Source: Mobula hypostoma (lineage: Eukaryota). Taken from it: a DNA stretch of 64,000 bases. Location: the NCBI RefSeq assembly GCF_963921235.1, contig NW_026948141.1:186001-250000 (forward strand). The letters are read 5' to 3'. The notes under the pieces are model-generated. The model was not told the origin of the DNA. It saw only the letters and a program-made list of their open reading frames with translations, and made no database searches. Every line of letters starts with the position of its first letter. The stretch's first letter is position 1. Below are positions 5,934 through 58,000 of this stretch, piece after piece. A program made the translations under genes and the position numbers.

Positions 5934-6073
5934 TCATCTTGTACTGGGACAAGCAATTGGTTCAGTCATTTTACCCACTCGCCAGAACACACATATGATT
6001 CTCTGGAAGTCGACAGCAGGACACGAGAAGATATTTTTGCGGAGCTAAGGGCCTGGAGGGCAGAACACAACAG
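5934..6073 (+). CDS. LRRC56: LRRC56 coding exon
   Basis: Strong polypyrimidine acceptor tttacag| and CAG|gtaggt donor. SSCTG...EDIFAELRAWRAEHNR, phase 0 to 2, compatible with its neighbours. Confidence 0.85.
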
Positions 6074-21834: not shown

Positions 21835-22159
21835 CAGATATGCCTTCTGACATGGAAGCTTCACTGGTTACAGCCTTCAATCAGGCACTGTCTCCCACTC
21901 CTCCATCAGCTCAGGAAGCAGCAAACCAACACAGTGTCCTTGACTTCAGGGTTGGACGCTTGAGGAGAGTTCTCCCTAAAGGAAACGAGCTCACGCAGGA
22001 AGAGGACGGAAGTTCTGCTCCGCTTGCTGAAGGCAGTGCAGCCTCGAATTTACCCGGAGTTAAAGTGAGAGATATGCCTGCTGGGCTGATGGTGAACTCT
22101 GGCATGAAGAGCCTCAGACCAGTGTCCGGGCTGGCCACAGTCGGATCACGAACCATGAG
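21835..22159 (+). CDS. LRRC56: LRRC56 coding exon (low-complexity C-terminal region)
   Basis: ttctctag|cag acceptor (NAGNAG) and GAG|gtatga donor. Lies within ORF 21804-22208; phase 1 to 2 fits both flanking exons. Confidence 0.75.
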
Positions 22160-30455: not shown

Positions 30456-30813
30456 CTACTTTATAATTTCCTGTCAGAGTCACCTTATGTACAAGCACTC
30501 CTGTGCCTAGTATCACTTTAGGGACATACAATCAATCATATGTCTTAATATTAATTGTGCTCTGTTATTATTTTTGTGTTCCTTATTGTGTTTTTTATGC
30601 TGCATTGGACCTGGAGTAACATTTATTTCATTCTCTTTAACACTTGCATAATGGAAATGACATTGAACAATCTTGAGTCTTGAAACTAATGGTCCAAGCA
30701 ACAATTGGTCAGCAAACAGTGTCCTAGGTACTAATTTATAGAAGAGAGATGAGCAGATATACGAGATCACTGCTGAACTCTAATTTACTTACACTAATTG
30801 TTTTCATTGGCAG

Positions 30814-31003
30814 AACGCAGGTTGACAAGAGATCCCATCTGGTTATTGCTAATCATCAGCCAATAATACGATCGTCCACAAAGACACCAGAGCGCACCCT
30901 TGCCCCAAATGCTGTCCGACCACTGACTGCAAAGGCTGCCTTACAGAGGCTGCCAAATAGAGCCTTTCTTCTGCCCAGCAAAGGGAGCAACATCAAACAC
31001 TGA
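30814..31003 (+). CDS. LRRC56: LRRC56 last coding exon (stop TGA 31001-31003)
   Basis: ttttcattggcag|A acceptor, phase 2. TQVDKRSHLVIANHQPIIRSS...RPLTAKAALQRLPNR...IKH*. Unique non-repeat sequence. Confidence 0.8.
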
Positions 31004-34000
31004 GGTAAAGTCGGGAAAAACTCTACACTGCATGGTGTTGTGTGCTGAGGTAAAGTCGGGAAAAACTCTACACTGCATGGTGTTGTGTGCTGAGGTACTG
31101 TTGGGAATAACTGTAGTCTGCAAGGTGTTGTGTGCTGAGGTACAGTCGGGAAAAACTCTACACTGCATGGTGTGTGCTGAGGTACTGTTGGGAACAACTG
31201 TAGTCTGCAAGGTGTTGTGTGCTGAGGTACTGTTGGGAATAACTGTAGTCTGCATGGTGTGTACTGAGGTACAGTGGAGAATAACTGTAGTCTGCAAGGT
31301 GTTGTGTGCTGAGGTACTGTTGGGAATAACTGTAGTCTGCATGGTGTGTGCTGAGGTACAGTGGAGAATAACTAGTCTGCAAGGTGTTGTGTGTTGAGGT
31401 ACTGTTGGGAATAACTGTAGTCTGCATGGTGTGTGCTGAGGTACAGTGGAGAATAACTGTAGTCTGCAAGGTGTTGTGTGCTGAGGTACTGTTGGGAATA
31501 ACTGTAGTCTGCAAACTACACTGCATGGTGTTGTGTGCTGAGGTACTGTTGGGAATAACTGTAGTCTGCAAGGTGTTGTGTGCTGAGGTACAGTCGGGAA
31601 AAACTCTACACTGCATGGTGTGTGCTGAGGTACTGTTGGGAACAACTGTAGTCTGCAAGGTGTTGTGTGCTGAGGTACTGTTGGGAATAACTGTAGTCTG
31701 CATGGTGTGTGCTGAGGTACAGTGGAGAATAACTGTAGTCTGCAAGGTGTTGTGTGCTGAGGTACTGTTGGGAATAACTGTAGTCTGCATGGTGTGTGCT
31801 GAGGTACAGTGGAGAATAACTAGTCTGCAAGGTGTTGTGTGTTGAGGTACTGTTGGGAATAACTGTAGTCTGCATGGTGTGTGCTGAGGTACAGTGGAGA
31901 ATAACTGTAGTCTGCAAGGTGTTGTGTGCTGAGGTACTGTTGGGAATAACTGTAGTCTGCAAAGTGTGTGCTGAGGTACAGTGGAGAATAACTGTAGTCT
32001 GCATGGTGTTGTGTGCTGAGGTACTGTTGGGAATAACTGTAGTCTGCATGGTGTGTGCTGAGGTACAGTGGAGAATAACTGTAGTCTGCATGGTGTTGTG
32101 TGCTGAGGTACTGTTGAGAATAATTGTAGGCTGCATGGTGTGTGCTGAGGTACAGTGGAGAATAACTGTAGTCTGCAAAGTGTGTGCTGAGGTACAGTGG
32201 AGAATAGCAGTAGTCTGCATGGTGTGTGCTGAGGTACTGTTAGGAATAACTGTAGTCTGCATGGTGTGTGCTGAGGTACTGTTGGGAATAACTGTAGTCT
32301 GCATGGTGTGTGCTGAGGTACAGTGGAGAATAACTGTAGTCTGCAAGGTGTGTGCTGAAGTACTGTTGAGAATAACTGTAGTCTGCAAAGTGTGTGCTGA
32401 GGTACAGTGGAGAATAACTGTAGTCTGCATGGTGTTGTGTTCTGAGGTACAGTCAGGAAAAACTCTACACTGCATGGTGTTGTGTGCTGAGGTACAGTGG
32501 AGAATAACTGTAGTCTGCATGGTGTGTGCTGAGGTACAGTGGAGAATAACTGTAGTCTGCAAGGTGTTGTGTGCTGAGGTACTGTTGGGAATAACTGTAG
32601 TCTGCATGGTGTGTGCTGAGGTACTGTGGAGAATAACTAGTCTGCAAGGTGTTGTATGCTGAGGTACTGTTGGGAATAACTGTAGTCTGCATGGTGTGTG
32701 CTGAGGTACAGTGGAGAATAACTGTAGTCTGCATGGTGTTGTGTGCTGAGGTACTGTTGGGAATAACTGTAGTCTGCATAGTGTGTGCTGAGGTACAGTG
32801 GAGAATAACTGTAGTCTGTATGGTGTTGTGTGCTGAGGTACAGTGGAGAATAACTGTACTCTGCAAGGTATTGTGTGCTGAGGTACTGTTGGGAATAACT
32901 GTAGACTGCAAGGTGTTGTGTGCTGAGGTACAGTGGAGAATAACAGTAGTCTGCAAGGTGTTGTGTGCTGAGGTACTGTTGGGAATAACTGTAGTCTGCA
33001 TGGTGTTGTGTGCTGAGGTACTGTTGGGAATAACTGTACTCTGCAAAGTGTGTGCTGAGATACAGTGGAGAATAACTGTAGTCTGCATGGTGTTGTGTGC
33101 TGAGGTACTGTTGGGAATAACTGTAGTCTGCATGGTGTGTGCTGAGGTACTGTTGGGAATAACTGTACTCTGCAAAGTGTGTGCTGAGATACAGTGGAGA
33201 ATAACAGTAGTCTGCATGGTGTTGTGTGCTGAGGTACTGTTAGGAATAACTGTAGTCTGCATAGTGTGTGCTGAGGTACAGTGGAGAATAACAGTAGTCT
33301 GCAAGGTGTTGTGTGCTGAGGTACTGTTGGGAATAACTGTAGTCTGCATGGTGTTGTGTGCTGAGGTACTGTTGGGAATAACTGTAGTCTGCATGGTGTG
33401 TGCTAAGGTACAGTGGAGAATAACTGTAGTCTGCAAGGTGTTGTGTGCTGAGGTACTGTTGGGAATAACTGTAGTCTGCAAGGTGTTGTGTGCTGAGGTA
33501 CTGTTGGGAATAACTGTAGTCTGCAAAGTGTGTGCTGAGGTACAGTGGAGAATAACAGTAGTCTGCAAGGTGTTGTGTGCTGAGGTACTGTTGGGAATAA
33601 CTGTAGTCTGCATGGTGTGTGCTAAGGTACAGTGGAGAATAACTGTAGTCTGCAAGGTGTTGTGTGCTGTGGTACTGTTGGGAATAACTGTAGTCTGCAA
33701 AGTGTGTGCTGAGGTACAGTGGAGAATAACTGTAGTCTGTATGGTGTTGTGTGCTGAGGTACAGTGGAGAATAACTGTACTCTGCAAGGTATTGTGTGCT
33801 GAGGTACTGTTGGGAATAACTGTAGACTGCAAGGTGTTGTGTGCTGAGGTACAGTGGAGAATAACTGTACTCTGCAAGGTGTTGTGTGCTGAGGTACTGT
33901 TGGGAGTAACTGTAGTCTGCATGGTGTTGTGTGCTGAGGTACAGTCGGGAAAAACTCTACACTGCATGGTGTTGTGTGCTGAGGTACAGTGGAAAATAAC

Positions 34001-37000
34001 TGTACACTGCATGGTGTGTGCTGAGGTACTGTTGGGAATAACTGTAGTCTGCATGGTGTGTGCTGAGGTACAGTGGAGAATAACTGTAGTCTGCATGGTG
34101 TTGTGTGCTGAGGTACTGTTGGGAATAACTGTAGTCTGCATGGTGTGTGCTGAGGTACAGTGGAGAATAACTGTAGTCTGCATGGTGGTGTTGTGTGCTG
34201 AGGTACTGTTGGGAATAACTGTAGTCTGCATGGTGTGTGCTGAGGTACAGTGGAGAATAACTGTAGTCTGCATGGTGTTGTGTGCTGAGGTACTGTTGGG
34301 AATAACTGTAGTCTGCATGGTGTGTGCTGAGGTACAGTGGAGAATAACTGTAGTCTGCATGGTGTTGTGTGCTGAGGTACTGTTGAGAATAATTGTACTC
34401 TGCATGGTGTGTGCTGAGGTACAGTGGAGAATAACTGTAGTCTGCAAAGTGTGTGCTGAGGTACAGTGGAGAATAGCAGTAGTCTGCATGGTGTGTGCTG
34501 AGGTACTGTTAGGAATAACTGTAGTCTGCATGGTGTGTGCTGTGTAGTCTGCAAGGTGTGTGCTGAGGTACAGTGGAGAATAACTGTAGTCTGCAAGGTG
34601 TTGTGTGCTGAGGTACTGTTGGGAATAACTGTAGTCTGCAAGGTGTTGTGTGCTGAGGTACTGTTGGGAATAACTGTAGTCTGCATGGTGTGTGCTGAGG
34701 TACAGTGGAGAATAACGTGTGCTGAGGTACTGTTGGGAATAACTGTAGTCTGCATGGTGTGTGCTGAGGTACAGTGGAGAATAACTGTAGTCTGCAAGGT
34801 GTGTGCTGAGGTACAGTGGAGAATAACTGTAGTCTGCAAGGTGTTGTGTGCTGAGGTACTGTTGGGAATAACTGTAGTCTGAGGTACTGTTGGGAATAAC
34901 TGTAGTCTGCATGGTGTGTGCTGAGGTACAGTGGAGAATAACTGTAGTCTGCAAGGTGTGTGCTGAAGTACTGTTGAGAATAACTGTAGTCTGCAAAGTG
35001 TGTGCTGAGGTACAGTGGAGAATAACTGTAGTCTGCATGGTGTTGTGTTCTGAGGTACAGTCAGGAAAAACTCTACACTGCATGGTGTTGTGTGCTGAGG
35101 TAAAGTGGAGAATAACTGTAGTCTGCATGGTGTGTGCTGAGGTACAGTGGAGAATAACTGTAGTCTGCAAGGTGTTGTGTGCTGAGGTACTGTTGGGAAT
35201 AACTGTAGTCTGCATGGTGTGTGCTGAGGTACTGTGGAGAATAACTAGTCTGCAAGGTGTTGTATGCTGAGGTACTGTTGGAAATAACTGTAGTCTGCAT
35301 GGTGTGTGCTGAGGTACAGTGGAGAATAACTGTAGTCTGCATGGTGTTGTGTGCTGAGGTACTGTTGGGAATAACTGTAGTCTGCATGGTGTGTGCTGAG
35401 GTACTGTTGGGAATAACTGTACTCTGCAAAGTGTGTGCTGAGATACAGTGGAGAATAACAGTAGTCTGCATGGTGTTGTGTGCTGAGGTACTGTTAGGAA
35501 TAACTGTAGTCTGCATGGTGTGTGCTGAGGTACAGTGGAGAATAACAGTAGTCTGCAAGGTGTTGTGTGCTGAGGTACTGTTGGGAATAACTGTAGTCTG
35601 CATGGTGTTGTGTGCTGAGGTACTGTTGGGAATAACTGTAGTCTGCATGGTGTGTGCTAAGGTACAGTGGAGAATAACTGTAGTCTGCAAGGTGTTGTGT
35701 GCTGAGGTACTGTTGGGAATAACTGTAGTCTGCATGGTGTTGTGTGCTGAGGTACTGTTGGGAATAACTGTAGTCTGCAAAGTGTGTGCTGAGGTACAGT
35801 GGAGAATAACAGTAGTCTGCAAGGTGTTGTGTGCTGAGGTACTGTTGGGAATAACTGTAGTCTGCATGGTGTGTGCTAAGGTACAGTGGGGAATAACTGT
35901 AGTCTGCAAGGTGTTGTGTGCTGTGGTACTGTTGGGAATAACTGTAGTCTGCAAAGTGTGTGCTGAGGTACAGTGGAGAATAACTGTAGTCTGTATGGTG
36001 TTGTGTGCTGAGGTACAGTGGAGAATAACTGTACTCTGCAAGGTATTGTGTGCTGAGGTACTGTTGGGAATAACTGTAGACTGCAAGGTGTTGTGTGCTG
36101 AGGTACTGTTGGGAATAACTGTAGTCTGCAAGGTGTTGTGTGCTGAGGTACTGTTGGGAATAACTGTAGTCTGCAAGGTGTTGTGTGCTGAGGTACAGTG
36201 GAGAATAACTGTAGTCTGCAAGGTGTTGTGTGCTGTGGTACTGTTGGGAATAACTGTAGTCTGTATGGTGTTGTGTGCTGAGGTACAGTGGAGAATAACT
36301 GTACTCTGCAAGGTGTTGTGTGCTGAGGTACTGTTGGGAATAACTGTAGTCTGCAAGGTGTTGTGTGCTGAGGTACAGTGGAGAATAACTGTACTCTGCA
36401 AGGTGTTGTGTGCTGAGGTACTGTTGGGAGTAACTGTAGTCTGCATGGTGTTGTGTGCTGAGGTACAGTCGGGAAAAACTCTACACTGCATGCTGTTGTG
36501 TGCTGAGGTACAGTGGAAAATAACTGTACACTGCATGGTGTGTGCTGAGGTACTGTTGGGAATAACTGTAGTCTGCAAAGTGTGTGCTGAGGTACTGTTG
36601 GGAATAACTGTAGTCTGCATGGTGTGTGCTGAGGTACAGTGGAGAATAACTGCAGTCTGCAAGGTGTGTGCTGAGGTACAGTGGAGAATAACCGTAGTCT
36701 GCAAGGTGTTGTGTGCTGAGGTACTGTTGGGAATAACTGTAGTCTGCAAAGTGTGTGCTGAGGTACAGTGGAGAATAACAGTAGTCTGCAAGGTGTTGTG
36801 TGCTGAGGTACTGTTGGGAATAACTGTAGTCTGCATGGTGTTGTGTGCTGAGGTACTGTTGGGAATAACTGTAGTCTGCATGGTGTGGGCTAAGGTACAG
36901 TGGAGAATAACTGTAGTCTGCAAGGTGTGTGCTGAGGTACAGTGGAGAATAACTGTAGTCTGCAAGGTGTTGTGTGCTGAGGTACTGTTGGGAATAACTG

Positions 37001-40000
37001 TAGTCTGCAAGGTGTTGTGTGCTGAGGTACTGTTGGGAATAACTGTAGTCTGCAAAGTGTGTGCTGAGGTACAGTGGAGAATAACAGTAGTCTGCAAGGT
37101 GTTGTGTGCTGAGGTACTGTTGGGAATAACTGTAGTCTGCAAAGTGTGTGCTGAGGTACTGTTGGGAATAACTGTAGTCTGCATGGTGTGTGCTAAGGTA
37201 CAGTGGAGAATAACTGTAGTCTGCAAGGTGTGTGCTGAGGTACAGTGGAGAATAACTGTAGTCTGCAAGGTGTTGTGTGCTGTGGTACTGTTGGGAATAA
37301 CTGTAGTCTGCAAGGTGTTGTGTGCTGAGGTACTGTTGGGAATAACTGTAGTCTGCAAGGTGTTGTGTGCTGTGGTACTGTTGGGAATAACTGTAGTCTG
37401 CAAGGTGTTGTGTGCTGAGGTACTGTTGGGAATAACTGTAGTCTGCAAGGTGTTGTGTGCTGAGGTACTGTTGGGAATAACTGTAGTCTGCAAGGTGTTG
37501 TGTGCTGAGGTACTGTTGGGAATAACTGTAGTCTGCAAGGTGTTGTGTGCTGAGGTACTGTTGGGAATAACTGTAGTCTGCAAGGTGTTGTGTGCTGAGG
37601 TACTGTTGGGAATAACTGTAGTCTGCATGGTGTGTGCTGAGGTACAGTGGAGAATAACTGTAGTCTGCAAAGTGTGTGCTGAGGTACAGTGGAGAATAAC
37701 TGTAGTCTGCAAAGTGTGTGCTGAGGTACAGTGGAGAATAACTGTACTCTGCAAGGTATTGTGTGCTGAGGTACTGTTGGGAATAACTGTAGTCTGCAAG
37801 GTGTTGTGTGCTGAGGTACTGTTGGGAGTAACTGTAGTCTGCGAGGTGTTGTGTGCTGAGGTACAGTCGGGAAAAACTCTACACTGCTTGGTGTTGTGTG
37901 CTGTGATACAGTGGAAAATAACTGTACACTGCATGGTGTGTGCTGAGGTACTGTTGGGAATAACTGTAGTCTGCATGGTGTGTGCTGAGGTACAGTGGAG
38001 AATAACTGTAGTCTGCATGGTGTTGTGTGCTGAGGTACAGTGGAGAATAACTGTAGTCTGCAAAGTGTGTGCTGAGGTACAGTGGAGAATAACAGTAGTC
38101 TGCAAGGTGTTGTGTGCTGAGGTACTGTTGGGAATAACTGTAGTCTGCAAAGTGTGTGCTGAGGTACTGTTGGGAATAACTGTAGTCTGCATGGTGTGTG
38201 CTGAGGTACAGTGGAGAATAACTGTAGTCTGCAAGGTGTGTGCTGAGGTACAGTGGAGAATAACTGTACTCTGCAAGGTATTGTGTGCTGAGGTACTGTT
38301 GGGAATAACTGTAGTCTGCAAGGTGTTGTGTGCTGAGGTACTGTTGGGAATAACTGTAGTCTGCAAGGTGTTGTGTGCTAAGGTACTGTTGGGAATAACT
38401 GTAGTCTGCATGGTGTGTGCTGAGGTACAGTGGAGAATAACTGTAGTCTGCAAGGTGTGTGCTGAAGTACTGTTGAGAATAACTGTAGTCTGCAAAGTGT
38501 GTGCTGAGGTACAGTGGAGAATAACTGTAGTCTGCATGGTGTTGTGTTCTGAGGTACAGTCAGGAAAAACTCTACACTGCATGGTGTTGTGTGCTGAGGT
38601 AAAGTGGAGAATAACTGTAGTCTGCATGGTGTGTGCTGAGGTACAGTGGAGAATAACTGTAGTCTGCAAGGTGTTGTGTGCTGAGGTACTGTTGGGAATA
38701 ACTGTAGTCTGCATGGTGTGTGCTGAGGTACTGTGGAGAATAACTAGTCTGCAAGGTGTTGTATGCTGAGGTACTGTTGGAAATAACTGTAGTCTGCATG
38801 GTGTGTGCTGAGGTACAGTGGAGAATAACTGTAGTCTGCATGGTGTTGTGTGCTGAGGTACTGTTGGGAATAACTGTAGTCTGCATGGTGTGTGCTGAGG
38901 TACTGTTGGGAATAACTGTACTCTGCAAAGTGTGTGCTGAGATACAGTGGAGAATAACAGTAGTCTGCATGGTGTTGTGTGCTGAGGTACTGTTAGGAAT
39001 AACTGTAGTCTGCATGGTGTGTGCTGAGGTACAGTGGAGAATAACAGTAGTCTGCAAGGTGTTGTGTGCTGAGGTACTGTTGGGAATAACTGTAGTCTGC
39101 ATGGTGTTGTGTGCTGAGGTACTGTTGGGAATAACTGTAGTCTGCATGGTGTGTGCTAAGGTACAGTGGAGAATAACTGTAGTCTGCAAGGTGTTGTGTG
39201 CTGAGGTACTGTTGGGAATAACTGTAGTCTGCATGGTGTTGTGTGCTGAGGTACTGTTGGGAATAACTGTAGTCTGCAAAGTGTGTGCTGAGGTACAGTG
39301 GAGAATAACAGTAGTCTGCAAGGTGTTGTGTGCTGAGGTACTGTTGGGAATAACTGTAGTCTGCATGGTGTGTGCTAAGGTACAGTGGGGAATAACTGTA
39401 GTCTGCAAGGTGTTGTGTGCTGTGGTACTGTTGGGAATAACTGTAGTCTGCAAAGTGTGTGCTGAGGTACAGTGGAGAATAACTGTAGTCTGTATGGTGT
39501 TGTGTGCTGAGGTACAGTGGAGAATAACTGTACTCTGCAAGGTATTGTGTGCTGAGGTACTGTTGGGAATAACTGTAGACTGCAAGGTGTTGTGTGCTGA
39601 GGTACTGTTGGGAATAACAGTAGTCTGCAAGGTGTTGTGTGCTGAGGTACTGTTGGGAATAACTGTAGTCTGCAAGGTGTTGTGTGCTGAGGTACAGTGG
39701 AGAATAACTGTAGTCTGCAAGGTGTTGTGTGCTGTGGTACTGTTGGGAATAACTGTAGTCTGTATGGTGTTGTGTGCTGAGGTACAGTGGAGAATAACTG
39801 TACTCTGCAAGGTGTTGTGTGCTGAGGTACTGTTGGGAATAACTGTAGTCTGCAAGGTGTTGTGTGCTGAGGTACTGTGGAGAATAACTGTACTCTGCAA
39901 GGTGTTGTGTGCTGAGGTACTGTTGGGAGTAACTGTAGTCTGCATGGTGTTGTGTGCTGAGGTACAGTCGGGAAAAACTCTACACTGCATGCTGTTGTGT

Positions 40001-42111
40001 GCTGAGGTACAGTGGAAAATAACTGTACACTGCATGGTGTGTGCTGAGGTACTGTTGGGAATAACTGTAGTCTGCAAAGTGTGTGCTGAGGTACTGTTGG
40101 GAATAACTGTAGTCTGCATGGTGTGTGCTGAGGTACAGTGGAGAATAACTGCAGTCTGCAAGGTGTGTGCTGAGGTACAGTGGAGAATAACTGTAGTCTG
40201 CAAGGTGTTGTGTGCTGAGGTACTGTTGGGAATAACTGTAGTCTGCAAAGTGTGTGCTGAGGTACAGTGGAGAATAACAGTAGTCTGCAAGGTGTTGTGT
40301 GCTGAGGTACTGTTGGGAATAACTGTAGTCTGCATGGTGTTGTGTGCTGAGGTACTGTTGGGAATAACTGTAGTCTGCATGGTGTGGGCTAAGGTACAGT
40401 GGAGAATAACTGTAGTCTGCAAGGTGTGTGCTGAGGTACAGTGGAGAATAACTGTAGTCTGCAAGGTGTTGTGTGCTGAGGTACTGTTGGGAATAACTGT
40501 AGTCTGCAAGGTGTTGTGTGCTGAGGTACTGTTGGGAATAACTGTAGTCTGCAAAGTGTGTGCTGAGGTACAGTGGAGAATAACAGTAGTCTGCAAGGTG
40601 TTGTGTGCTGAGGTACTGTTGGGAATAACTGTAGTCTGCAAAGTGTGTGCTGAGGTACTGTTGGGAATAACTGTAGTCTGCATGGTGTGTGCTAAGGTAC
40701 AGTGGAGAATAACTGTAGTCTGCAAGGTGTGTGCTGAGGTACAGTGGAGAATAACTGTAGTCTGCAAGGTGTTGTGTGCTGTGGTACTGTTGGGAATAAC
40801 TGTAGTCTGCAAGGTGTTGTGTGCTGAGGTACTGTTGGGAATAACTGTAGTCTGCAAGGTGTTGTGTGCTGTGGTACTGTTGGGAATAACTGTAGTCTGC
40901 AAGGTGTTGTGTGCTGAGGTACTGTTGGGAATAACTGTAGTCTGCAAGGTGTTGTGTGCTGAGGTACTGTTGGGAATAACTGTAGTCTGCAAGGTGTTGT
41001 GTGCTGAGGTACTGTTGGGAATAACTGTAGTCTGCAAGGTGTTGTGTGCTGAGGTACTGTTGGGAATAACTGTAGTCTGCAAGGTGTTGTGTGCTGAGGT
41101 ACTGTTGGGAATAACTGTAGTCTGCATGGTGTGTGCTGAGGTACAGTGGAGAATAACTGTAGTCTGCAAAGTGTGTGCTGAGGTACAGTGGAGAATAACT
41201 GTAGTCTGCAAAGTGTGTGCTGAGGTACAGTGGAGAATAACTGTACTCTGCAAGGTATTGTGTGCTGAGGTACTGTTGGGAATAACTGTAGTCTGCAAGG
41301 TGTTGTGTGCTGAGGTACTGTTGGGAGTAACTGTAGTCTGCGAGGTGTTGTGTGCTGAGGTACAGTCGGGAAAAACTCTACACTGCTTGGTGTTGTGTGC
41401 TGTGATACAGTGGAAAATAACTGTACACTGCATGGTGTGTGCTGAGGTACTGTTGGGAATAACTGTAGTCTGCATGGTGTGTGCTGAGGTACAGTGGAGA
41501 ATAACTGTAGTCTGCATGGTGTTGTGTGCTGAGGTACAGTGGAGAATAACTGTAGTCTGCAAAGTGTGTGCTGAGGTACAGTGGAGAATAACAGTAGTCT
41601 GCAAGGTGTTGTGTGCTGAGGTACTGTTGGGAATAACTGTAGTCTGCAAAGTGTGTGCTGAGGTACTGTTGGGAATAACTGTAGTCTGCATGGTGTGTGC
41701 TGAGGTACAGTGGAGAATAACTGTAGTCTGCAAGGTGTGTGCTGAGGTACAGTGGAGAATAACTGTACTCTGCAAGGTATTGTGTGCTGAGGTACTGTTG
41801 GGAATAACTGTAGTCTGCAAGGTGTTGTGTGCTGAGGTACTGTTGGGAATAACTGTAGTCTGCAAGGTGTTGTGTGCTAAGGTACTGTTGGGAATAACTG
41901 TAGTCTGCATGGTGTGTGCTGAGGTACAGTGGAGAATAACTGTACTCTGCAAGGTATTGTGTGCTGAGGTACTGTTGGGAATAACTGTAGTCTGCAAGGT
42001 GTTGTGTGCTGAGGTACTGTTGGGAATAACTGTAGTCTGTATGGTGTGTGCTGAGGTACTGTTGGGAATAACTGTAGTCTGCATGGTGTTGTGTGCTGAG
42101 GTACAGTGGAG
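31000..42111. repeat. Satellite array of 42/45-bp units (~250 copies)
   Basis: Consensus gctgaggtac(tgttgg/agtgga)gaataactgtagtctgca(a/t)ggtgt(tgt)gt repeated head-to-tail. Confidence 0.98.
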
Positions 42112-42271
42112 TAGTGGTCACCAACCTTTTTAAGCACACGATCCCTACCTCGACCTTAGTGAAAGGCAAGATCTACCTACTAAATCGTTCGGAGAGAAAA
42201 CAGCTCAGATTGTACTTCCAATTTGAGGCCTTTTATTTGGGCTATTCGTATTTGAATTACACAAAATACAT

Positions 42272-44285
42272 TTAGATTTAGCTTATGAGAACACTCAGTC
42301 CTCGTTTATTGTCACTTAGAAATGCATGCATGTATTAAGAAATGATACAATGTTCCTCCAGAGTGATATCACAGAAACAGCAGAAATATTTAAAATGTCG
42401 CTGTCTACGGGTGAAGTACCGGAGGATTGGAGAGTGGCTCATGTTATTCCGTTGTTTAAAAAAGGATCGAAAAGTAATCCGGGAAATTATAGGCCGGTGA
42501 GTTTAACGTCAGTAGTAGGTAAGTTGTTGGAGGGAGTACTAAGAGACAGAATCTACAGGCATTTGGATAGACAGGGACTTATTAGGGAGAGTCAACATGG
42601 CTTTGTGTGTGGTAGGTCATGTTTGACCAATCTGTTGGAGTTTTTCGAGGAGGTTACCAGGAAAGTGGATGAAGGGAAGGCAGTGGATATTGTCTGCATG
42701 GACTTCAGTAAGGCCTTTGACAAGGTCCCGCATGGGAGGTTAGTTAGGAAAATTCAGTCGCTAGGTATACATGGAGAGGTGGTAAATTGGATTAGACCTT
42801 GGCTCGATGGAAGAAGCCAGAGAGTGGTGGTAGAGAATTGCTTCTCTGAGTGGAGGCCTGTGACTAGTGGTGTGCCACAGGGATCAGTGCTGGGTCCATT
42901 GTTATTTGTCATCTATATCAATGATCTGGATGATAATGTGGTAAATTGGATCAGCAAGTTTGCTGATGATACAAAGATTGGAGGTGTAATAGACAGTGAG
43001 GAAGTTTTTCAGAGCCTGCAGAGGGACTTGGACCAGCTGGAAAAATGGGCTGAAAAATGGCAGATGGAGTTTAATACTGACAAGTGTGAGGTATTGCACG
43101 TTGGAAGGACAAAGCAACGTAGAACATACAGGGTTAATGGTAAGGCACTGAGGAGTGCAGTGGAACAGAGGGATCTGGGAATACAGATACAAAATTCCCT
43201 AAAAGTGTCGTCACAGGTAGATAGGGTCGTAAAGAGAGCTTTTGGTACATTGGCCTTTATTAATCGAAGTATTGAGTATAAGAGCTGGAATGTTATGATG
43301 AGGTTGTATAAGGCATCGGTGAGGCCGAATCTGGAGTATTGTGTTCAGTTTTGGTCACCAAATTACAGGAAGGATATAAATAAGGTTGAAAGAGTGCAGA
43401 GAAGGTTTACAAGGATGTTGCCGGGACTTGAGAGACTCAGTTACAGAGAAAGGTTGAATAGATTAGGACTTTATTCCCTGGAGCGTAGAAGAATGAGGGG
43501 AGATTTGATAGAGGTATATAAAATTATGATGGGTATAGATAGAGTGAATGCAAGCAGGCTTTTTCCACTGAGGCAAGGGGAGAAAAAAACCAGAGGACAT
43601 GGGTTAAGGGTGAGGGGGGAAAAGTTTAAAGGGAACACTAGTGGGGGCCTTCTTCACACAGAGAGTGGTGGGAGTATGGAATGAGCTGCCAGACGAGGTG
43701 GTAAATGTGGGTTCTTTTTTAACATTTAAGAATAAATTGGACAGATACATGGATGGGAGGTGTATGGAGGGACATGGTCCGTGTGCAGGTCAGTGGGACT
43801 AGGCAGAAAATGGTTCGGCACAGCCAAGAAGGGCCAAAGGGCCTGTTTCTGTGCTGTAGTTTCTATGGTTCTATGGTTCTGTGGTTCTAAAACAGGTCAA
43901 ACCAAAGACTAACACTGACAGAACCACATAATTATAACATATAGTTACAGCAGTACAAAGCAATACCATAATTTGATAAAGAGCAGATCATGGGCACGGT
44001 AAAAAAAAGTCTCAAAGTCCCAAGTTGATCGACTCCCAAGTCCCCAACAGCAGGCGGCAAATGGGAGAAACTCCCTGCCATAAACCTCCAGGCACCAACA
44101 ACTGCCGATGCATTGGAAACACCCGACCACAGCCGACACCGAGTTCGTCCGTCCGAAAACTTTGAGCCTCCGACCAGACCCTCCGATACAGCCTCCAAGC
44201 GCCATCGACCTCGCCCCGGCCGCCGAAACAAGCAAAGCCGAGATTCGGGGCCTTCTCCTCCGGAGATTCCAGACTACACAGTAAC
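42272..44285 (-). mobile_element. Non-autonomous SINE-like retroposon (CpG-rich head, Rex1-like tail) split by a CR1
   Basis: Contiguous sequence either side of the CR1, both carrying aaacag. Minus-strand tail ...ggaggaacattgtatcattt...tgacaataaa...taaatctaaa. No coding motifs. Confidence 0.5.
42381..43889 (+). mobile_element. Young 5'-truncated CR1 LINE with open RT
   Basis: ORF 42326-43684 has an uninterrupted RT (QGSVLGP, FADD); tail ttctatgg repeats; candidate TSD aaacag (42375-42380 / 43890-43895). Confidence 0.95.
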
Positions 44286-45798
44286 GTTTGTCAAACTTTC
44301 AAATCAATTCAAACAAGAAAACACTGTAGCTAGCATATCAAACAGGCCATTAGCTGTCTTTCTTTAAGAATATTACAATACTTCACACCTTTAATTCTAA
44401 GTTTCATTATTTAATTTTATTTCAACACGAAAAATAAATGAATAAAAATTGACTGTTGGACTCAGTGTGATGACTGGGGCTGAATACTTTCTGCTAGTTC
44501 CCTGAAATTTGGCTCATAACTACAGACAGCCAGTCTGAGACAGTCTGTGAGGTGTTTGTCAATAAGACAGCTCCTGTACTAAGATTCAATAATTTTCATC
44601 TGTGAAAATGCAATTTCACATAGATAAGTTGACCTGAAGTAGGTACTGACTTTTAGTGTTATAAAGCCAACATGCACACCGCGCATTGCTCAGGCCCCAT
44701 CAATAGTAATTGCCGCCAGTTTATGAATGGGGATGTCATTTTCACGGACATATTTTTAAAACTCATTGTAAATATCCTCACCTCTCGTTCTTTCCTTTAA
44801 TTGCAAAAGAGTGAGGAAGTTCTCCTTTGTTGTAAAATCCTGGAAAGCCATTCTGACAAATACAACAAGCTGAGCTGTTTGTATTACATCCAGGGATTCA
44901 TCGAACTGTAGTGAAAAATACCCACGTCCTCTGACAGTGACTCTACCCTCCTTGTCACTGTTGCAGGGCCAAGCGGTATATTATGTATTGCGGTTGTGAT
45001 GTTGTTTTTGTTTTTAAAGTCAGTAAAAACAGTCTCTGCGGTAATGACCATTGCTTCCTTGAATAAATCGACATCTGTAAAAGGCTTCTTGCATTTAGCC
45101 AAAAGGTGATTTACATGAAATGATGCTTCAATAGCAGTCTTATTCTGAGCAGCATGTTTTGTGAAAAACGATTGCTGGGCCTTCAACCCTGATTTCAGCT
45201 CAACTTTCCTGGCACGAATTGCGCTCTTTGGGGGGTAGGTGTCTTCAAATTTCTGGTGGTTGGTGCTGTGGTGCCTCTCCAGATTCCCTCTTTTCGTCAG
45301 TGCTTGTGTTTGGTGGCACAACATATATACACACTTGTCTTTCACCAAGGTAAGTAGAAATTCCTCTTCCCATTCTGGATGGAATTTGTACGTTTTCGCC
45401 TTCTTTCGTGGAGCCTCCGCCATGCTATCAGGATACCACGAGCGAGTGCCGTATATTGATGTTTGCGACAGTCTGTACTCTTATCTAATTTAATTGGTCA
45501 CTTTGATGCAGCACAGGCTACGCTGAAAACGTAGTTCATGGTGGGGGTGCTACACACGTGCACTGGGCAGAAAGCATGGAACTAAAACCCCGCAACCCGG
45601 AAACAATCTCTCTTTACAAACAGCTTTCAGTCGCGGAAGTATTGCTATATTACCATTATCCTAATTAGTATTACTTATTTTTATAATGCTCACATTACAA
45701 CAGTATTTGTGTATTTATTTTTGATTTTTTTTCGGGATCTACTGGGAAAGTCTCAAAGATCGACCGGTCGATCACAATCGACGGGTTGGCGACCACTA

Positions 45799-46298
45799 CC
45801 GTAGAGAATAACTGTACTCTGCCAGCTGTTGTGTGCTGAGGTACAGTGGAGAATAACTGTACTCTGCAAGGTGTTGTGTGCTGAAGTACTGTTGGGAATA
45901 ACTGTAGTCTGCAAGGTGTTGTGTGCTGAGATACTGTCAGTAATAACTTTGCAAGGTGTTGTGTGCTGAGGTACTGTCGGTAATAACTGTACTCTGCAAG
46001 GTGTGTGCTGAGGTACTGTAGAGAATAACTGTAGTCTGCCAGCTGTTGTGTGCTGAGGTACTGTAGCGAACAGCTGTACTCTGCAAGGTGTTGTGTGGAG
46101 AATAGCTGTTCTCTGCCAGCTGTTGTGAGCTGATGTACTGTTGGGAATAACTGTACTCTGCCAGGTGTTGTGTGCTCTGGTACTGTTGGAAATAACTGTA
46201 CTTTACAAGGTGTTGTGTGCTGAGGTACTGCAGAGAATAGCTGTTCTCTGCCAGGTGTTGTGTGCCGAGGTACTGTTGAGAATAACTGCAATCTGCAA
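45799..46298. repeat. Diverged distal part of the 42/45-bp satellite (~11 units)
   Basis: Same unit as 31000-42111 with many private substitutions. Confidence 0.9.
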
Positions 46299-46624
46299 GC
46301 TTTCTTTGGTGTCCACACATGGAGAAGAAATACACAACGATTTAACTCCCCCTGGCTGCTGTGTCTGAACTCCACCCGTGCTTTCCTGCTTTTAACTTTA
46401 TGCATCTTATCCTCCTGGCTTTGCCAGTTCTCCTCTGTTTCAATCGGTGAACAAACTCTCTTCACCAATTATACGTTCTTGACACTAGTACAACCCTCCA
46501 TCCTCCTGTACTTCCTGGGATAATGTACCCCTCTCCAGCATCATCTTCCATACCCAACCCCCCCAACTCTCCATCCACTCCCCACATCCTTAAACCTGCC
46601 AGCAACAAAAGATCTGCTGGGGGC

Positions 46625-46789: not shown

Positions 46790-47052
46790 TGTCAAGCAGT
46801 GCCAGCAGGTCGAGCAGTGCCAGTAAGTTGAGCAGTGCTATTGGGTTGAGCAATGCCAGTGGGTTGAGTTGTGCCAGTGGGTTGAGCAGTGCCAGTGGGT
46901 TGAGCAGTGCCAGTGGGCAAACAATTCCAGTGGGTTGAGCAATGCCAGTGGATCTAGCAGTGCCAGTGGGTTGGACAATGCCAGTGGGTTGAGCAGTGCC
47001 AGTGGGTCGACCATCATCAGTGGCTTAGGCAGCATCAGCAGGTCAAGCATCA
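46790..47052. repeat. 18-bp minisatellite (~14 degenerate copies)
   Basis: Unit gcagtgccagtgggttga. Confidence 0.9.
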
Positions 47053-49406: not shown

Positions 49407-51410
49407 TTATTTTTGTGTTAGCCATGGAGGTCATTGTGAGGGCTGCAGAATCAGTGGGACCAGGTGTCGCACTTGATGGCAGAGGGGAGTTACCACCAAT
49501 ATGAGCATTCATGGACGATTTCACCCTTTTGGGTCCCAGCAACGGAGGCAGTGGAAAATGTACTATCTAGACTCGAGGAGCTAATGGATTGGGGAAGAAT
49601 GAAGTTCAAGACCAAGAAGTCAAGGAGCCTTGTTCTTAGGAGAGGAAAGCTGGTTGACTTTCATTTCACCCTTTGTGGAGAGGAGATTCCATCCATTCAG
49701 GACCAACCAGTTAAGAACCAGAGGAGCTGAGAGTCACCAAGAGGGTTCAAGAGACAGGAGGACAGATCAGCAGAGGTCTGATGTCTGTTGACAAGCGTGG
49801 CTTGCCTGGCAAGTTGAAGTTGTGCTTGTAGTACAGACTGATGCCACAGATAATGTGGCCATTAACTGTCTGTGAAGTGGCAATGTCCCACGTTGAGGCA
49901 ATGGAACGGAAGATCAACAAGTATGTGAAGAAGTGGCTTGGAGTACTGAGCAGCCTCACCAATGTTGCAATCCACAATAGCCAGACAAAGCTTACCATCC
50001 CAGTGCAATCCCTTGTTGAGAAAGTCAAGGTAGCTAAGGTAAGATCATTCTTGATGCTTCGAGACTCAAAAGACCCTGTCATCAAGAACGCCCAGCCGGA
50101 TGTGAGATCAGGCAGGAAGTGGTCAGCCCATGTAGCAGTTGATGAGGCAGAGTCTAGATTGAAGCACAAGGAGATGGTTGGGGCTACCCAGCTAAGCCGC
50201 CAGGGACTTGGATGGACAACCCACAAGTGGTGGTCATCTTCCACAGGTAAGGAGCTTGTAACACAAGAAGTACGAGAGGTAGAAGAGGAGAAGAGGTTAG
50301 CTAAAACAGCTGGCCTGGCCAAACAAGGGGCTTGGACCTGGTGGGAAAGTGTTGAACAACGACATCCATCTTGGAATGTTCTGTGGCAGATGGAACCACT
50401 CCGCATTTCTTTTCCACACAGAGCAATGTACGATCTGCTCCCAACACCTGCCAACCTCAGCACCTGGTATGAAGATAAGACAGACAGGTGTGCTGCTTGT
50501 GGCGAGAAGGGAAAATATTTTGAGTCCATGCAGAGTCAATCTTTCCAGTGGCATGTACACTTGGAGACATAACAACGTTCTCAAAATTGTAACAGAAGTG
50601 GGTGAGCAGAGAGTACTTCAGCACAACTTATCTCATGCCCCATGCTGCACAGAACATCGCATATCATTTGTGAAAGAAGGCTCCAAGTCAAGGGTGTACA
50701 GCGCAGGCTCACGATCAAGCATACTTTCCTCAGCCAATGATTGGTGTGTCAAGGCTGACCTGGATGGGAAAGGCAGTTTCCCGGAGCAAATAGCTTTCAC
50801 CACATTGCGTCCAGATATAATCGTATGGTCTGACACCAGTAGAGAAGTGGTTATTGGTGAACTCACAGTCCCCTGGGAAGACAACATCGATGAAGCCCAT
50901 GAGCGCAAGTTAACCAAGTATGCAGAGTCAAGATCAGAGTGCAGAGACAGAGGGTGGAAGGTCTCATGCTATCCATTCGAAGTAGGCTGCCATGGGTTTA
51001 TTGCGTTCACTTTCCAGAAGTGGCTGCGTGACCTTGGCTTCACTAGAAGAGAGATCAAGTCAACCAGCAGGGCTGTAGCTGAGGCAGCAGAGACAGGACC
51101 AGCATGGGTGTGGACCAAGTATGTCCAGAGGGGCAGAGAGTCGGACAGTGTATCCATCTTTTGCAAACCCTTCAGTAGTTGCATAGACACCTGAAGAGTA
51201 GACTATCTGTTGGATGGAAGCAACCAACAACTCTGATAGAGGCAGATGCCAAGTTTTTAAGCTCACCAGTGGGAGGTGGTGCTTTAGCACTGCTGATCCA
51301 CCACCTCGAGGGAGCCTTGATCATAAGCGGGCCGAAACTCCTGAAGACAGGTGGCAGATCAACTGATGATCCCTCTGGTGATAGCACAGGACAGTTAACA
51401 TCTTAGTCCA
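49407..51410 (+). mobile_element. 5'-truncated Hero-like (R2 group) non-LTR retrotransposon with restriction-like endonuclease
   Basis: LFVLAME...AFMDD (RT), GLPGKLK, GRKWSA, YDLLPTPANL, CAACGEKG knuckle, YTWRHNNVL, RPDIIVWS...ELTVPWED...ERKLTKY and PFEVGCHGF. Several stops and frameshifts. Inserted in a Penelope 3' tail (49080-49405 / 51440-51505). Confidence 0.9.
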
Positions 51411-51571: not shown

Positions 51572-51612
51572 GTGTGGGTGTGTGTGTGTTTGTGGGTGTG
51601 TGCGTGTGTGTG
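51572..51612. repeat. Imperfect (GT)n microsatellite
   Basis: gtgtgggtgtgtgtgtgtttgtgggtgtgtgcgtgtgtgtg. Confidence 0.85.
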
Positions 51613-51697
51613 CTCTGTCTCTCCCCTAACTGAAGGCTGGGCCTTGCGCCCAGCCCCCATTCTGAGTCCTTTAACCTGTTCTCCTTTCTCTTTTAAG

Positions 51698-52040
51698 ATG
51701 CTCCTAACAGCTATTTGTGGCTTGACTAAAATCCTTCTTTGTTTAATTCATTATTCATTGAAGGAAAGTGTGTTTCGCAGGCTGAGCCTGTCTTTAATTG
51801 CCTGACGCTGAGTTACCCTGGACAAAGTGGCGATGAGCTCTGTAGTCCTTGTGGTTTGGGTATCATTTTGTCCACAGGCTCCACTTTAATTTTGCTTCCT
51901 CTTGTGTGTATTGTGACCTTTCTGTGTTAAAAGCATTATATAAATGCAAATGACTGATGTTACCATGGTGCATTTGACAAGAGGAAGATTGTATCAGTCT
52001 GAAAAATTCTATTTCAGTGTTCATAAATAAGATATAAACT
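51698..52040 (+). other. Candidate non-coding terminal (3' UTR) exon of LRRC56
   Basis: Unique AT-rich island preceded by a branch-like tttaac and ctcctttctcttttaag| acceptor. Would pair with the unexplained donor at 31005. No canonical AATAAA seen. Confidence 0.35.
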
Positions 52041-53143
52041 AATGTCCCTAGTTAAAGACTAAAAAGGGGCATCCTAGTAAAAGAAGCGACGTCCATTTAC
52101 AACAAAGATGAGGAGGAATTTCTTTATCCAGAGGGTGGTGAATCTGTGGAATTCATTGCCACAGACAGCTGTAGAGGCCAAATCATTGAGTATGTGTAAA
52201 GCAGAGGTTGATATGTTCTTGATTAGTCAGGGCGTCAAAGGTTACAGGGAGAAGGCAGAAGAATGGGGTTGAGAGGGATAATAAATCAGTCATGATGGAA
52301 TGGTGGGGCAGACTTGATGGACCGAATGGCCTAATTCTGCTCCTGTCTTATGTTCTTACAGAATACTTGCCCCTCAGGTCCTCTTAAATCTCTTCCTTAA
52401 AACCGTGCCCTCTAGTTTTAGACTCCCCTACCCTCGGGAAAATCCTTTGACTTATCTTTGCCTCTCATTACTAACCGTAACCCATGACCTCTGGTTGTAG
52501 TCCCACCCAACCTCAGTGGAAAAAGCCTGCTTGCCTTTACCCTATCTATATCCCTCGTAATTTTGCATACCTGTATCAAATCTCCTCTCAGTCTTCTACA
52601 TTCTGAAGAATATAGTCTTAACCTATTCAATCATTACTCATAACTCAAGTCCTCTAGACGCGACAACATCCTCGTAAGTTTTCTCTGTACCCTTTCAACC
52701 TTGAAAAGGAAAATAAAAGGCACCACACATCAAAGTCCAATCTCTTCGTGCACAAACAGTTGGAGCTCAAGGACCTTCTTCTTCACCCTGCGACCCCTCG
52801 GACCACCTCGACCGGCCGCCACTATGGAGTAGTCAGTATGTGGAATGAGCTGCCAGACGTAAGAACAGCAACAACATTGAACAATGTCTGATTGATCAGG
52901 GCACAGAGGGATGTGGGATTCACCCAAGTAAGTTGGATTAGTGTCAGTGAGCTTGATGTTCAGCATAGATATGGTGGGCCGAAGGGCCTGTGGCAACGTC
53001 CTATGTCAATGTTGGCTGCTCATTCAGAATTGGGTTTATTATCACTGACACGATGTGAGCTTTATTGTTTTGTAGCAACAGTGCCATGCAAGTTTCAAAA
53101 CTTATGAGAGACCTAGATGGGGTTTATAGTCAGAATCTCTTTC

Positions 53144-54745
53144 CATAGAAAAACTACAGAACCATAGAAACTGCAGCACAGAAACAGGCCCTTTGGCCCT
53201 TCTTGGCTGTGCCGAACCATTTTCTGCCTAGTCCCACTGACCTGCACACAGACCATATCCCTCCATACACCTCCCATCCATGTATCTGTCCAATTTATTC
53301 TTAAATGTTAAAAAAGAACCCGCATTTACCACCTCATCTGGCAGCTCATTCCATACTCCCACCACTCTCTGTGTGAAGAAGCGCCCCCCCAATGTTCCCT
53401 TTAAACTTTTCCCCCCTCACCCTTAACCCATGTCCTCTGGTTTTTTTCTCCCCTTGCCTCAGTGGAAAAAGCCTGCTTGCATTCACTCTATCTATACCCA
53501 TCATAATTTTATATACCTCTATCAAATCTCCCCTCATTCTTCTACGCTCCAGGGAATAAAGTCCTAACCTATTCAACCTTTCTCTGTAACTGAGTTTCTC
53601 AAGTCCCGGCAACATCCTTGTAAACCTTCTCTGCACTCTTTCAACCTTATTTATATCCTTCCTGTAATTTGGTGACCAAAACTGAACACAATACTCCAGA
53701 TCCGGCCTCACCAGTGCCTTATACAACCTCATCATAACATTCCAGCTCTTATACTCAATACTTCGATTAATAAAGGCCAATGTACCAAAAGCTCTCTTTA
53801 CGACCCTATCTACCTGTGACGACACCTTTAGGGAATTTTGTATCTGTATTCCCAGATCCCTCTGTTCCACTGCACTCCTCAGTGCCTTACCATTAACCCT
53901 GTATGTTCTACCTTGGTTTGTCCTTCCAACGTGCAATACCTCACACTTGTCAGTATTAAACTCCATCTGCCATTTTTCAGCCCAATTTTCCAGCTGGTCC
54001 AAGTCCCTCTGCAGGCTCTGAAAACCTTCCTCATTGTCTACTACACCTCCAATCTTTGTATCATCAGCAAACTTGCTGATCCAATTTACCACATTATCAT
54101 CCAGATCATTGATATAGATGACAAATAACAATGGACCCAGCACTGATCCCTGTGGCACACCACTAGTCACAGGCCTCCACTCAGAGAAGCAATTCTCTAC
54201 CACCACTCTCTGGCTTCTTCCATCGAGCCAATGTCCAATCCAATTTACCACCTCTTCATGTATACCTAGCGACTGAATTTTCCTAACTAACCTCCCATGC
54301 GGGACCTTGTCAAAGGCCTTACTGAAGTCCATGTAGACAATATCCACTGCCTTCCCTTCATCCACTTTCCTGGTAACCTCCTTGAAAAACTCCAATAGAT
54401 TGGTCAAACATGACCTACCATGCACAAAGCCATGTTGACTCTCCCTAATAAGCCCTTGTCTATCCAAATGCTTGTAGATTCTGTCTCTTAGTACTCCCTC
54501 CAATAACTTACCTACTACTGACGTTAAACTCACCGGCCTATAATTTCCCGGATTACTTTTCGATCCTTTTTTAAACAACGGAACAACATGAGCCACTCTC
54601 CAATCCTCCGGCACCCCACCTGTAGACAGCGACATTTTAAATATTTCTGCCAGGGCCCCCGCAATTTCAACACCAGTCTCCTTCAAGGTCCGAGGGAACA
54701 CCCTGTCAGGTCCCGGGGATTTATCCACTTTAATTTTCCTCAAGA
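53144..54745 (-). mobile_element. Young 5'-truncated CR1 LINE with open RT
   Basis: ORF 53346-54743 (465 aa), nearly identical to ORF 42326-43684. Confidence 0.95.
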
Positions 54746-55050: not shown

Positions 55051-58000
55051 CTCCTCCTTTCACAGCCGGGTTTGGGACTGTCCATGGGGAGTTCATACCC
55101 GTTCCTCCTCCTTTCACAGCCAGGTTTGGGACTGTCCATGGGGAGTTCATACCCAACCCTCCTCCTTTCACAGCCGGGTTTGGGACTGTCCTTGGGGAGT
55201 TCATACCCAACCATCCTCCTTTCACAGCCGGATTTGGGACTTTCCATGGGGAGTTCATACCTGTTCCTCCTCCTTTCACAGCCGGGTTTGGGACTGTCCA
55301 TGGGGAGTTCATACCCGACCCTTCTCCTTTCACAGCCGGGTTTGGGACTGTCCATGGGGAGTTCATACCCGTTCCTCCTCGTTTCACAGCCAGGTTTGGG
55401 ACTGTCCATGGGGAGTTCATACCCGTTCCTCCTCCTGTCACAGCCAGGTTTGGGACTGTCCATGGGGAGTTCATACCCAACCCTCCTCCTTTCACAGCCA
55501 GGTTTGGGACTGTCCTTGGGGAGTTCATACCCAACCATCCTCCTTTCACAGCCGGATTTGGGACTTTCCATGGGGAGTTCATACCTGTTCCTCCTCCTTT
55601 CACAGCCGGGTTTGGGACTGTCCATGGGGAGTTCATACCCGACCCTTCTCCTTTCACAGCCAGGTTTGGGACTGTCCATGGGGAGTTCATACCCAACCCT
55701 CCTCCTTTCACAGCCAGGTTTGGGACTGTCCATGGGGTTCATACCCCCTCCTCCTTTCACAGCCGGGTTTGGGACTGTTCATGGGGAGTTCATACCCAAC
55801 CCTCCTCCTTTCACAGCCGGTTTGGACTGTAGGTCAGCCGTTTGGGACTCATGGGGAGTTCATACCCGTTCCTCCTCCTTTCACAGCCGGGTTTGGGACT
55901 GTCCATGGGGAGTTCATACCCAACCCTCCTCCTTTCACGTTCATACCCGTTCCTCCTCCTTTCACAGCCGGGTTTGGGACTGTCCATGGGGAGTTCATAC
56001 CCAACCCTCCTCCTTTCACAGCCGGGTTTGGGACTGTCCATGGGGAGTTCATACCCAACCCTCCTCCTTTCACAGCCGGGTTTGGGACTGTCCATGGGGA
56101 GTTCATACCCAACCCTCCTCCTTTCACAGCCGGGTTTGGGACTGTCCATGGGGAGTTCATACCCAACCCTCCTCCTTTCACAGCCGGGTTTGGGACTGTC
56201 CATGGGGAGTTCATACCCGTTCCTCCTCCTTTCACAGCCGGGTTTGGGACTGTCCAGGGGAGTTCATACCCGTTCCTCCTCCTTTCACAGCCGGGTTTGG
56301 GACTGTCCATGGGGAGTTCATACCCAACCCTCCTCCTTTCACAGCCGGGTTTGGGACTGTCCATGGGGAGTTCATACCCAACCCTCCTCCTTTCACAGCC
56401 GGGTTTGGGACTGTCCATGGGGAGTTCATACCCAACCCTCCTCCTTTCACAGCCGGGTTTGGGACTGTCCATGGGGAGTTCATACCCAACCCTCCTCCTT
56501 TCACAGCCAGGTTTGGGACTGTCCATGGGGAGTTCATACCCGTTCCTCCTCCTTTCACAGCCGAGTTTGGGACTGTCGATGGGGAGTTCATACCCGTTCC
56601 TCCTCCTTTCACAGCCGGGTTTGGGACTGTCCATGGGGAGTTCATACCCGTTCCTCCTCCTTTCACAGCCAGGTTTGGGACTGTCCATGGGGAGTTCATA
56701 CCCGTTCCTCCTCCTTTCACAGCCGGGTTTGGGACTGTCGATGGGGAGTTCATACCCGTTCCTCCTCCTTTCACAGCCGGGTTTGGGACTGTCCATGCAG
56801 AGTTCATACCCGTTCCTCCTCCTTTCACAGCCGGGTTTGGGACTGTCCATGGGGAGTTCATACCCGTTCCTCCTCCTTTCACAGCCGGGTTTGGGACTGT
56901 CGATGGGGAGTTCATACCCGTTCCTCCTCCTTTCACAGCCGGGTTTGGGACTGTCCATGCGGAGTTCATACCCAACCCTCCTCCTTTCACAGCCAGGTTT
57001 GGGACTGTCCATGGGGAGTTCATACCCGTTCCTCCTCCTTTCACAGCCGTGTTTGTGACTGTCGATGGGGAGTTCATACCCGTTCCTCCTCCTTTCACAG
57101 CCGGGTTTGGGACTGTCCATGCGGAGTTCATACCCAACCCTCCTCCTTTCACAGCCGGGATTGGGACTGTCCATGGGGAGTTCATACCCGTTCCTCCTCC
57201 TTTCACAGCCGGGTTTGGGACTGTCCATGGGGAGTTCATACCCAACTCTCCTCCTTTCACAGCCGGGTTTGGGACTGTCCATGGGGAGTTCATACCCGTT
57301 CCTCCTCCTTTCACAGCCGGGTTTGGGACTGTCCATGGGGAGTTCATACCTGTTCCTCCTCCTTTCACAGCCGGGTTTGGGACTGTCCATGGGGAGTTCA
57401 TACCCGTTCCTCCTCCTTTCACAGCCGGGTTTGGGACTGTCCATGGGGAGTTCATACCCGTTCCTCCTCCTTTCACAGCCGGGTTTGGGACTGTCGATGG
57501 GGAGTTCATACCCGTTCCTCCTCCTTTCACAGCCGGGTTTGGGACTGTCCATGCGGAGTTCATACCCAACCCTCCTCCTTTCACAGCCGGGTTTGGGACT
57601 GTCCATGGGGAGTTCATACCCGTTCCTCCTCCTTTCACAGCCGGGTTTGGGACTGTCCATGGGGAGTTCATACCCGTTCCTCCTCCTTTCACAGCCGGGT
57701 TTGGGACTGTCCATGGGGAGTTCATACCCAACCCTCCTCCTTTCACAGCCGGATTTGGGATTTTCCATGGGGAGTTCATACCTGTTCCTCCTCCTTTCAC
57801 AGCCGGGTTTGGGTCTGTCCATGGGGAGTTCATACCCGACCCTTCTCCTTTCACAGCCAGGTTTGGGACTGTCCATGGGGAGTTCATACCCAAGCCTCCT
57901 CCTTTCACAGCCAGGTTTGGGACTGTCCATGGGGAGTTCATACCCAACCCTCCTCCTTTCACAGCCGGGTTTGTGACTGTCCATGGGGAGTTCATACCCA

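Follow-up and report, generated by a model that had tools for sequence, protein, structure and literature searches.

An 11-kb minisatellite at the stop-codon/donor junction of ray LRRC56, probably grown in place within a 3′-UTR intron

Introduction

What becomes of a gene when the splice donor behind its stop codon is followed by some 250 tandem copies of itself? The question is raised by the 3′ end of LRRC56, a gene for dynein-arm assembly in motile cilia, in the ray Mobula hypostoma. In a stretch of 64,000 nucleotides (contig NW_026948141.1, positions 186,001 to 250,000; hereafter the window, whose own numbering is used throughout), the last coding exon of LRRC56 runs directly into an 11-kb tandem array. 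A sequence-only reading of this DNA had proposed that the array grew from the exon/intron boundary, that its donor-like sites may yield 3′ untranslated regions (UTRs) with variable numbers of repeats, and that nonsense-mediated decay (NMD) might link array content to LRRC56 expression. From the analysis reported here we consider it probable that the array is a minisatellite that arose in place at the stop-codon/donor junction of LRRC56, lies in the intron and is spliced out whole.

Results

The last LRRC56 coding exon (30814–31004, plus strand) matches the C-terminus of P0001, a protein named LRRC56 by NCBI, at 100% identity and comprises the stop codon TGA at 31001–31003 plus 1 nt of UTR. Its reading frame ends in SKGSNIKH, an ending shared by stingray proteins. 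Six further coding exons lie upstream on the same strand (502–679, 1373–1555, 1927–1991, 5934–6073, 15318–15499 and 21835–22159), all with GT-AG introns, and the seven window exons joined at these boundaries reproduce P0023 (Mobula hypostoma LRRC56 in the NCBI naming) at 420 of 420 residues. The donor at 1556, previously read as gtactg, was confirmed as ACG|GTACTG. One Mobula LRRC56 protein, P0025, has four RefSeq accessions, a sign that annotated transcript variants may differ in their UTRs alone. The position of the stop codon is conserved: in 19 of 22 homologues (rays, skates, sharks, sturgeons) it follows the start of LQRLP at a distance of exactly 20 residues, the exceptions being one homologue that ends at 19 residues and two turtles at 21. 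The stop is thus native, and the protein is therefore not truncated by the array. In organism C (run X11), the last coding exon carries an in-frame 9-nt deletion at 30901 that annotated stingray proteins do not have.

The repeat does begin on this stop codon, as had been claimed. The first unit (31000–31044, plus strand) consists of the last five exonic nucleotides (CTGAG) and the first 40 intronic ones, and encloses the authentic donor GAG|GTAAAG with its junction after 31004. Evidence that this donor is used came from assembled contigs of sequencing runs. Four of the 23 listed runs were chosen and aligned to 30600–31085, the array portion covered being 31000–31085; they include X9 (organism A) and X10 (organism B, from another study), which represent two ray species and are RNA according to the tool's guess. 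A 1,307-nt contig of X9 covers 30812–31005 with no exon mismatch, leaves the genome at 31005 and runs on for 438 nt. On the 5′ side its loose end corresponds to the end of the exon at 21835–22159, so that the 8,654-nt upstream intron is skipped exactly, which identifies the contig as spliced RNA. A 257-nt contig of X10 also leaves at 31005, with the same 30 letters as X9; it shows two exon differences from the window, both synonymous as judged by eye. The G at 31005 is compatible with either side of the junction, which by the GT rule falls after 31004, 1 nt past the stop. Both RNA-like runs (2/2), from two organisms and two studies, thus place the junction at the donor of the first unit. Contigs drop rare variants; within this limit, neither X9 nor X10 gave RNA cover on 31008–31085 or a contig leaving at unit 2.

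The RNA sequence downstream of the junction is absent from the window on both strands (0 matches at ≤3 mismatches; the best ungapped alignment has 13 mismatches of 30). Since the RNA leaves at the first unit and rejoins outside the window, the array sits in a 3′-UTR intron of at least 32,996 nt (31005–64000, plus strand), with the acceptor and the next exon outside the window. The donor of the first unit is functional in two ray species, whose LRRC56 possesses a non-coding 3′ exon 33 kb or more beyond the stop. Two candidate acceptors chosen by eye (46428 and 51698) were ruled out as the main partner because the RNA downstream sequence is not in the window. Behind the strong acceptor-like site at 51698 lies an AT-rich, unique-looking stretch (51590–52070), which is not the partner exon of the RNA. 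Back-splicing to a coding exon was discarded as well: the short open translation of the loose end was unrecognisable, by eye, in P0001 or P0023. A further candidate, in which duplication of an AGGT segment would have created the intron and the last unit would serve as acceptor, was ruled out, as the RNA does not rejoin in the distal remnant of the array described below. Nor does the main array offer a good acceptor: in the 17 nt before each of its YAGs there are at most 9 pyrimidines.

The array itself is real. Tandem Repeats Finder (TRF) reported 31000–42104 with a period of 45, 253.2 copies and a score of 13628. Splitting the main array (31000–42111, plus strand) at the anchor CTGAGGTA gave 253 anchors, that is, 253 units of 42/45 nt with 59 distinct sequences; the 252 intervals measure 45 nt (134), 42 nt (106), 43 nt (5) or other lengths (7). 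The earlier counts were borne out: the core GAG|GTA was found in 225 of 253 units (GAGGTACTG 124, GAGGTACAG 97, GAGGTAAAG 4; AGGTA 246). The GAG|GTAAAG of the first donor occurs in just four of the 253 (units 1, 2, 95 and 174). Intron position +4 is A in the authentic donor and C in 236 of 240 regular units. The asserted recurrence of TGA in the LRRC56 frame holds through the first nine anchors only, with 61 of 253 overall, and has no consequence behind the first stop.

Within the array, a higher-order tandem duplication of 3,499 bp (34921–41918, plus strand; blocks 34921–38419 and 38420–41918) is either very recent or an assembly duplication. In the latter case the array would be real and its length inflated, the true main array measuring about 7.6 kb. 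That the blocks differ at just 3 of 3,499 positions speaks for such an error, but recent higher-order duplications are normal in such arrays, and an error would touch size only, leaving the junction, the remnant and the presence in other species unaffected. We regard this explanation as distinctly unlikely.

The comparison with related rays that the sequence-only reading had called for placed the start of the repeat at the same site in organisms B and C. For organism B, a single DNA contig leads from unique flank into the repeat, to 31052. For organism C, a more distant ray with 31 differences and 10 gap positions in 390 nt, a single DNA contig reaches 31067, within the second unit. The repeat start at the same site in organism C implies that the repeat predates the split of these rays. 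Unit 1 keeps A at +4 in organisms A, B and C; in organism C it also has the CCAGCTG variant seen in the remnant.

The array does not end at 42111, as had been supposed. About 11 decayed units more were found at 45799–46301 (plus strand; TRF rows 45797–46296), in register behind a 3.7-kb insertion, and the whole array, main part and remnant together, amounts to about 264 units. The distal units are 74–85% identical to main units; the two nearest the insertion are 0–1 bases away from main-array units and the more distal ones 3–5. Five distal units carry GCCAG(C/G)TG variants, of which the main array has none. The remnant, isolated by the insertion, preserves an older state of the array. The insertion (42112–45798, minus strand) is a decayed hAT-like DNA transposon within one repeat unit, with a putative N-terminal transposase remnant on the minus strand. 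It displays the short terminal inverted repeats (15 nt; 16-nt arms 94% complementary) and the 8-bp target-site duplication (42104–42111 and 45799–45806, 6 of 8 alike) of a hAT element, and the duplication splits one unit in register. A weak Pfam match to the N-terminal Spin-doc zinc finger (E 2.3e-4; 21.2 bits, below the curated cut-off of 27.3) likewise appears to point to a hAT element. Nested in the transposon is a truncated long interspersed nuclear element (LINE; 42380–43878, plus strand; RVT_1, E 8.9e-37), a young fragment that we take to be CR1-like and that is 97.3% identical over 1,499 bp to a copy at 53152–54650.

How did the unit come to lie on the stop codon? Similarity to the unit begins abruptly at 31000: the 40 nt upstream match the tail of the unit at only 9 of 40 positions, the best local score of exon versus unit was reached by 369 of 500 shuffles, and the sequence after 46301 is also at chance (176/500). 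This abrupt start together with the conserved stop makes growth in place the simplest origin, and the proposal that the array arose from the exon/intron boundary is thus likely, the first unit spanning a real boundary in X9 and X10. Alternatively, the unit could belong to a dispersed minisatellite family of rays. One array of this family would have inserted at the stop codon, or been seeded there by microhomology, and may itself have supplied the donor and created the 3′-UTR intron. Repeat contigs of X5 and X11 do add depth well above the single-copy flank, a figure that is not a copy number; one long local array also explains it. A foreign unit must, moreover, place TGA in frame exactly at the ancestral stop, for which reason local duplication of a segment with 5 exonic and 40 intronic bases would be the simpler origin. 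Beyond the main array and the remnant, the latter part of the same array, the 64-kb window holds no further copy of the unit. Other tests of dispersal came out blank, all of them weak for a ray genome: metagenome contigs and Rfam gave 0 matches each, the plus-strand frame of the array matched 0 of 8,000 candidates at E 1e-5, and its minus-strand frame gave 37 matches with identities of ≤46%, of which 35 share no 7-residue word with the array and two share two. We judge a dispersed family to be an unlikely source.

We then asked what the copies may do to the transcript. By the usual rule, NMD requires a junction >50–55 nt after the stop (PMC13223760). The observed junction lies at +1, the donor of unit 2 at +46 nt and that of unit 3 at +91 nt. 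The junction in use is accordingly not that of an NMD-eliciting 3′-UTR intron, unit 2 is still within the limit, and only donors from unit 3 onward, at least 91 nt past the stop, would qualify. The hexamers AATAAA and ATTAAA do not occur in the main array (0), which speaks against polyadenylation within it. No repeat-bearing 3′ UTR and no NMD link were seen in the RNA contigs, which drop rare isoforms. Repeat-containing 3′ UTRs of variable length and an NMD link to LRRC56 expression, both proposed earlier, are thus unsupported. Rare use of later donors would be compatible with these data, since contigs lose minor variants, NMD would hide such isoforms and the coverage of the array is 85 bases.

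The strongest form of this idea would be that the array tunes LRRC56 output: some transcripts would use donors from unit 3 on, keep units in the 3′ UTR and be degraded by NMD, in a fraction set by array length or unit order. In its favour are the 225 donor-like sites with U1 pairing comparable to that of real donors, the distance of the donors from unit 3 onward, and the fact that NMD would conceal such isoforms from assemblies. In human ABCA7, furthermore, a few percent of the transcripts retain a single repeat unit, and the length of the variable number tandem repeat (VNTR) correlates with expression (PMC5954066). However, the junction in both ray species is that of unit 1, and the nearest competitor of equal strength, unit 2, is NMD-safe at 46 nt. 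In F7 minigenes the downstream copies did not compete (PMC1557585), unit retention in ABCA7 does not vary with length (PMC5954066), and in a human cell line true 3′-UTR introns departed from the 55-nt rule (PMC13223760). Tuning of this kind is, in our opinion, very unlikely. A broader version would regard the array as a retained regulatory element. Its roughly 250 U1 sites would either leak transcripts into NMD from unit 3 on, with dosage set by array structure, or protect the terminal intron of more than 33 kb from premature polyadenylation, while selection would keep the A(+4) donors of units 1–2 in the NMD-safe zone across rays. This regulatory reading is unsupported, and we hold it to be highly improbable.

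Four further features of the window were recorded. A second array, with 54-nt units, extends from 55051 to 64000 inside the same 3′-UTR intron, with 166 copies in the window, and runs off its edge. The region 49420–51250 contains decayed open frames (49832–50569 without a Pfam match), which by eye resemble the 3′ part of a retrotransposon without long terminal repeats that encodes a restriction-like endonuclease; the element is possibly related to the 54-nt array. An 18-nt tandem repeat of about 12 copies lies at 46795–47023, and an 82-nt tandem repeat of 6 copies with 97% identity lies in an LRRC56 intron at 10817–11314.

Discussion

Growth in place from the stop-codon/donor junction can be pictured as follows. 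In an ancestral ray, a 45-nt segment of 5 exonic and 40 intronic bases would have been duplicated head to tail, and the units would then have been amplified and homogenised by slippage and unequal exchange. Insertion of the hAT-like transposon may have separated ~11 distal units, which then decayed, from the proximal part, which presumably expanded to about 250 units, the 3.5-kb block being the latest step. The spliceosome would take the most upstream donor, as in human F7, aided by the better +4 base of the first donor. The resulting mRNA would keep the native stop, lack the repeat and escape junction-dependent NMD. Most likely the array is neutral DNA that is tolerated.

Several observations weigh against this account. 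By a crude estimate, U1 pairs with the common pseudo-donors at energies of −5.7 to −7.7, values that lie within those of the LRRC56 donors themselves (−4.3 to −13.7); as pairing energy does not separate real donors from pseudo-donors, weakness alone may not explain the silence of the latter. IFI6 and CBS (PMC1557585) as well as ABCA7 (PMC5954066) use the second or third copy at some level. The search for the unit covered the 64-kb window, and a large number of further repeat contigs from X5 and X11 stack up over 31018–31058. Finally, X9 and X10 count as RNA by a tool's guess and provide contigs only.

Minisatellites in which the first monomer spans an exon–intron boundary were described as a class by Borensztajn et al. 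in 2006, with F7, IFI6, CBS, LMNB2 and PDGF as members (PMC1557585). The ray array shares the structural features of this class: its first monomer lies over a real exon–intron boundary, the donor is reiterated (GAG|GTA in 225/253 units) and the remaining units are intronic. Use of the most upstream donor was found in 2/2 runs, by contigs covering 31000–31085 of the array. Further marks of the F7 type would be a copy number that differs among individuals and pseudo-sites that are activated by mutation of the authentic donor; no contig spans the ray array. The closest parallel is the 37-bp VNTR in intron 7 of human F7, where the first monomer likewise consists of a few exonic bases and the start of the intron (4 + 33 in F7, 5 + 40 in the ray), the donor is repeated downstream and the most upstream donor wins (PMC1557585). 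In contrast to the ray array with its about 264 copies, F7 has 5–9, and these are identical, whereas most ray copies deviate from the authentic donor at +4. Moreover, the F7 VNTR resides in a coding intron, the ray array in a 3′-UTR intron with the stop codon inside the unit (PMC1557585). The minisatellites of IFI6 (6-16) intron 2, CBS intron 13, LMNB2 and PDGF also reiterate an exon/intron junction in tandem, but in 10–25 copies, and in IFI6 and CBS the nearest pseudo-sites are used as well, of which none was seen in the ray contigs (PMC1557585). The copy number in the ray is thus far above that of the human cases compared (5–25 copies, ABCA7 apart).

As in the ray, the unit of the VNTR in intron 18 of human ABCA7 starts at the donor, and the longest alleles measure almost 10 kb (De Roeck et al. 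2018, PMC5954066). That unit, however, is 25 bp long and starts at the GT, without exonic bases. ABCA7 also differs in having a demonstrated effect of length on splicing and expression: low-level retention of one unit is constant with length, while exon skipping and expression vary (PMC5954066). With respect to its location, the ray intron resembles the 3′-UTR introns surveyed by Riley et al. in 2025, as most annotated UTR-only junctions lie ≤55 nt from the stop and that of the ray lies at 1 nt; unlike those, it measures at least 33 kb and opens with a donor-bearing array (PMC13223760). In a search that left most subscription journals outside, no publication came up that describes the ray array or a stop codon within a junction minisatellite. 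The setting in a 3′ UTR means that a slip by one unit costs nothing, while a slip by two or more could trigger NMD. The LRRC56 array is therefore a tidy test locus for position-first donor selection and a natural extreme of donor choice, one donor being preferred over more than 200 similar ones across 11 kb. Compared with F7, IFI6, CBS, LMNB2, PDGF and ABCA7, the ray array belongs to a known class and is distinct in its size, its enclosed stop codon and its position in a 3′-UTR intron.

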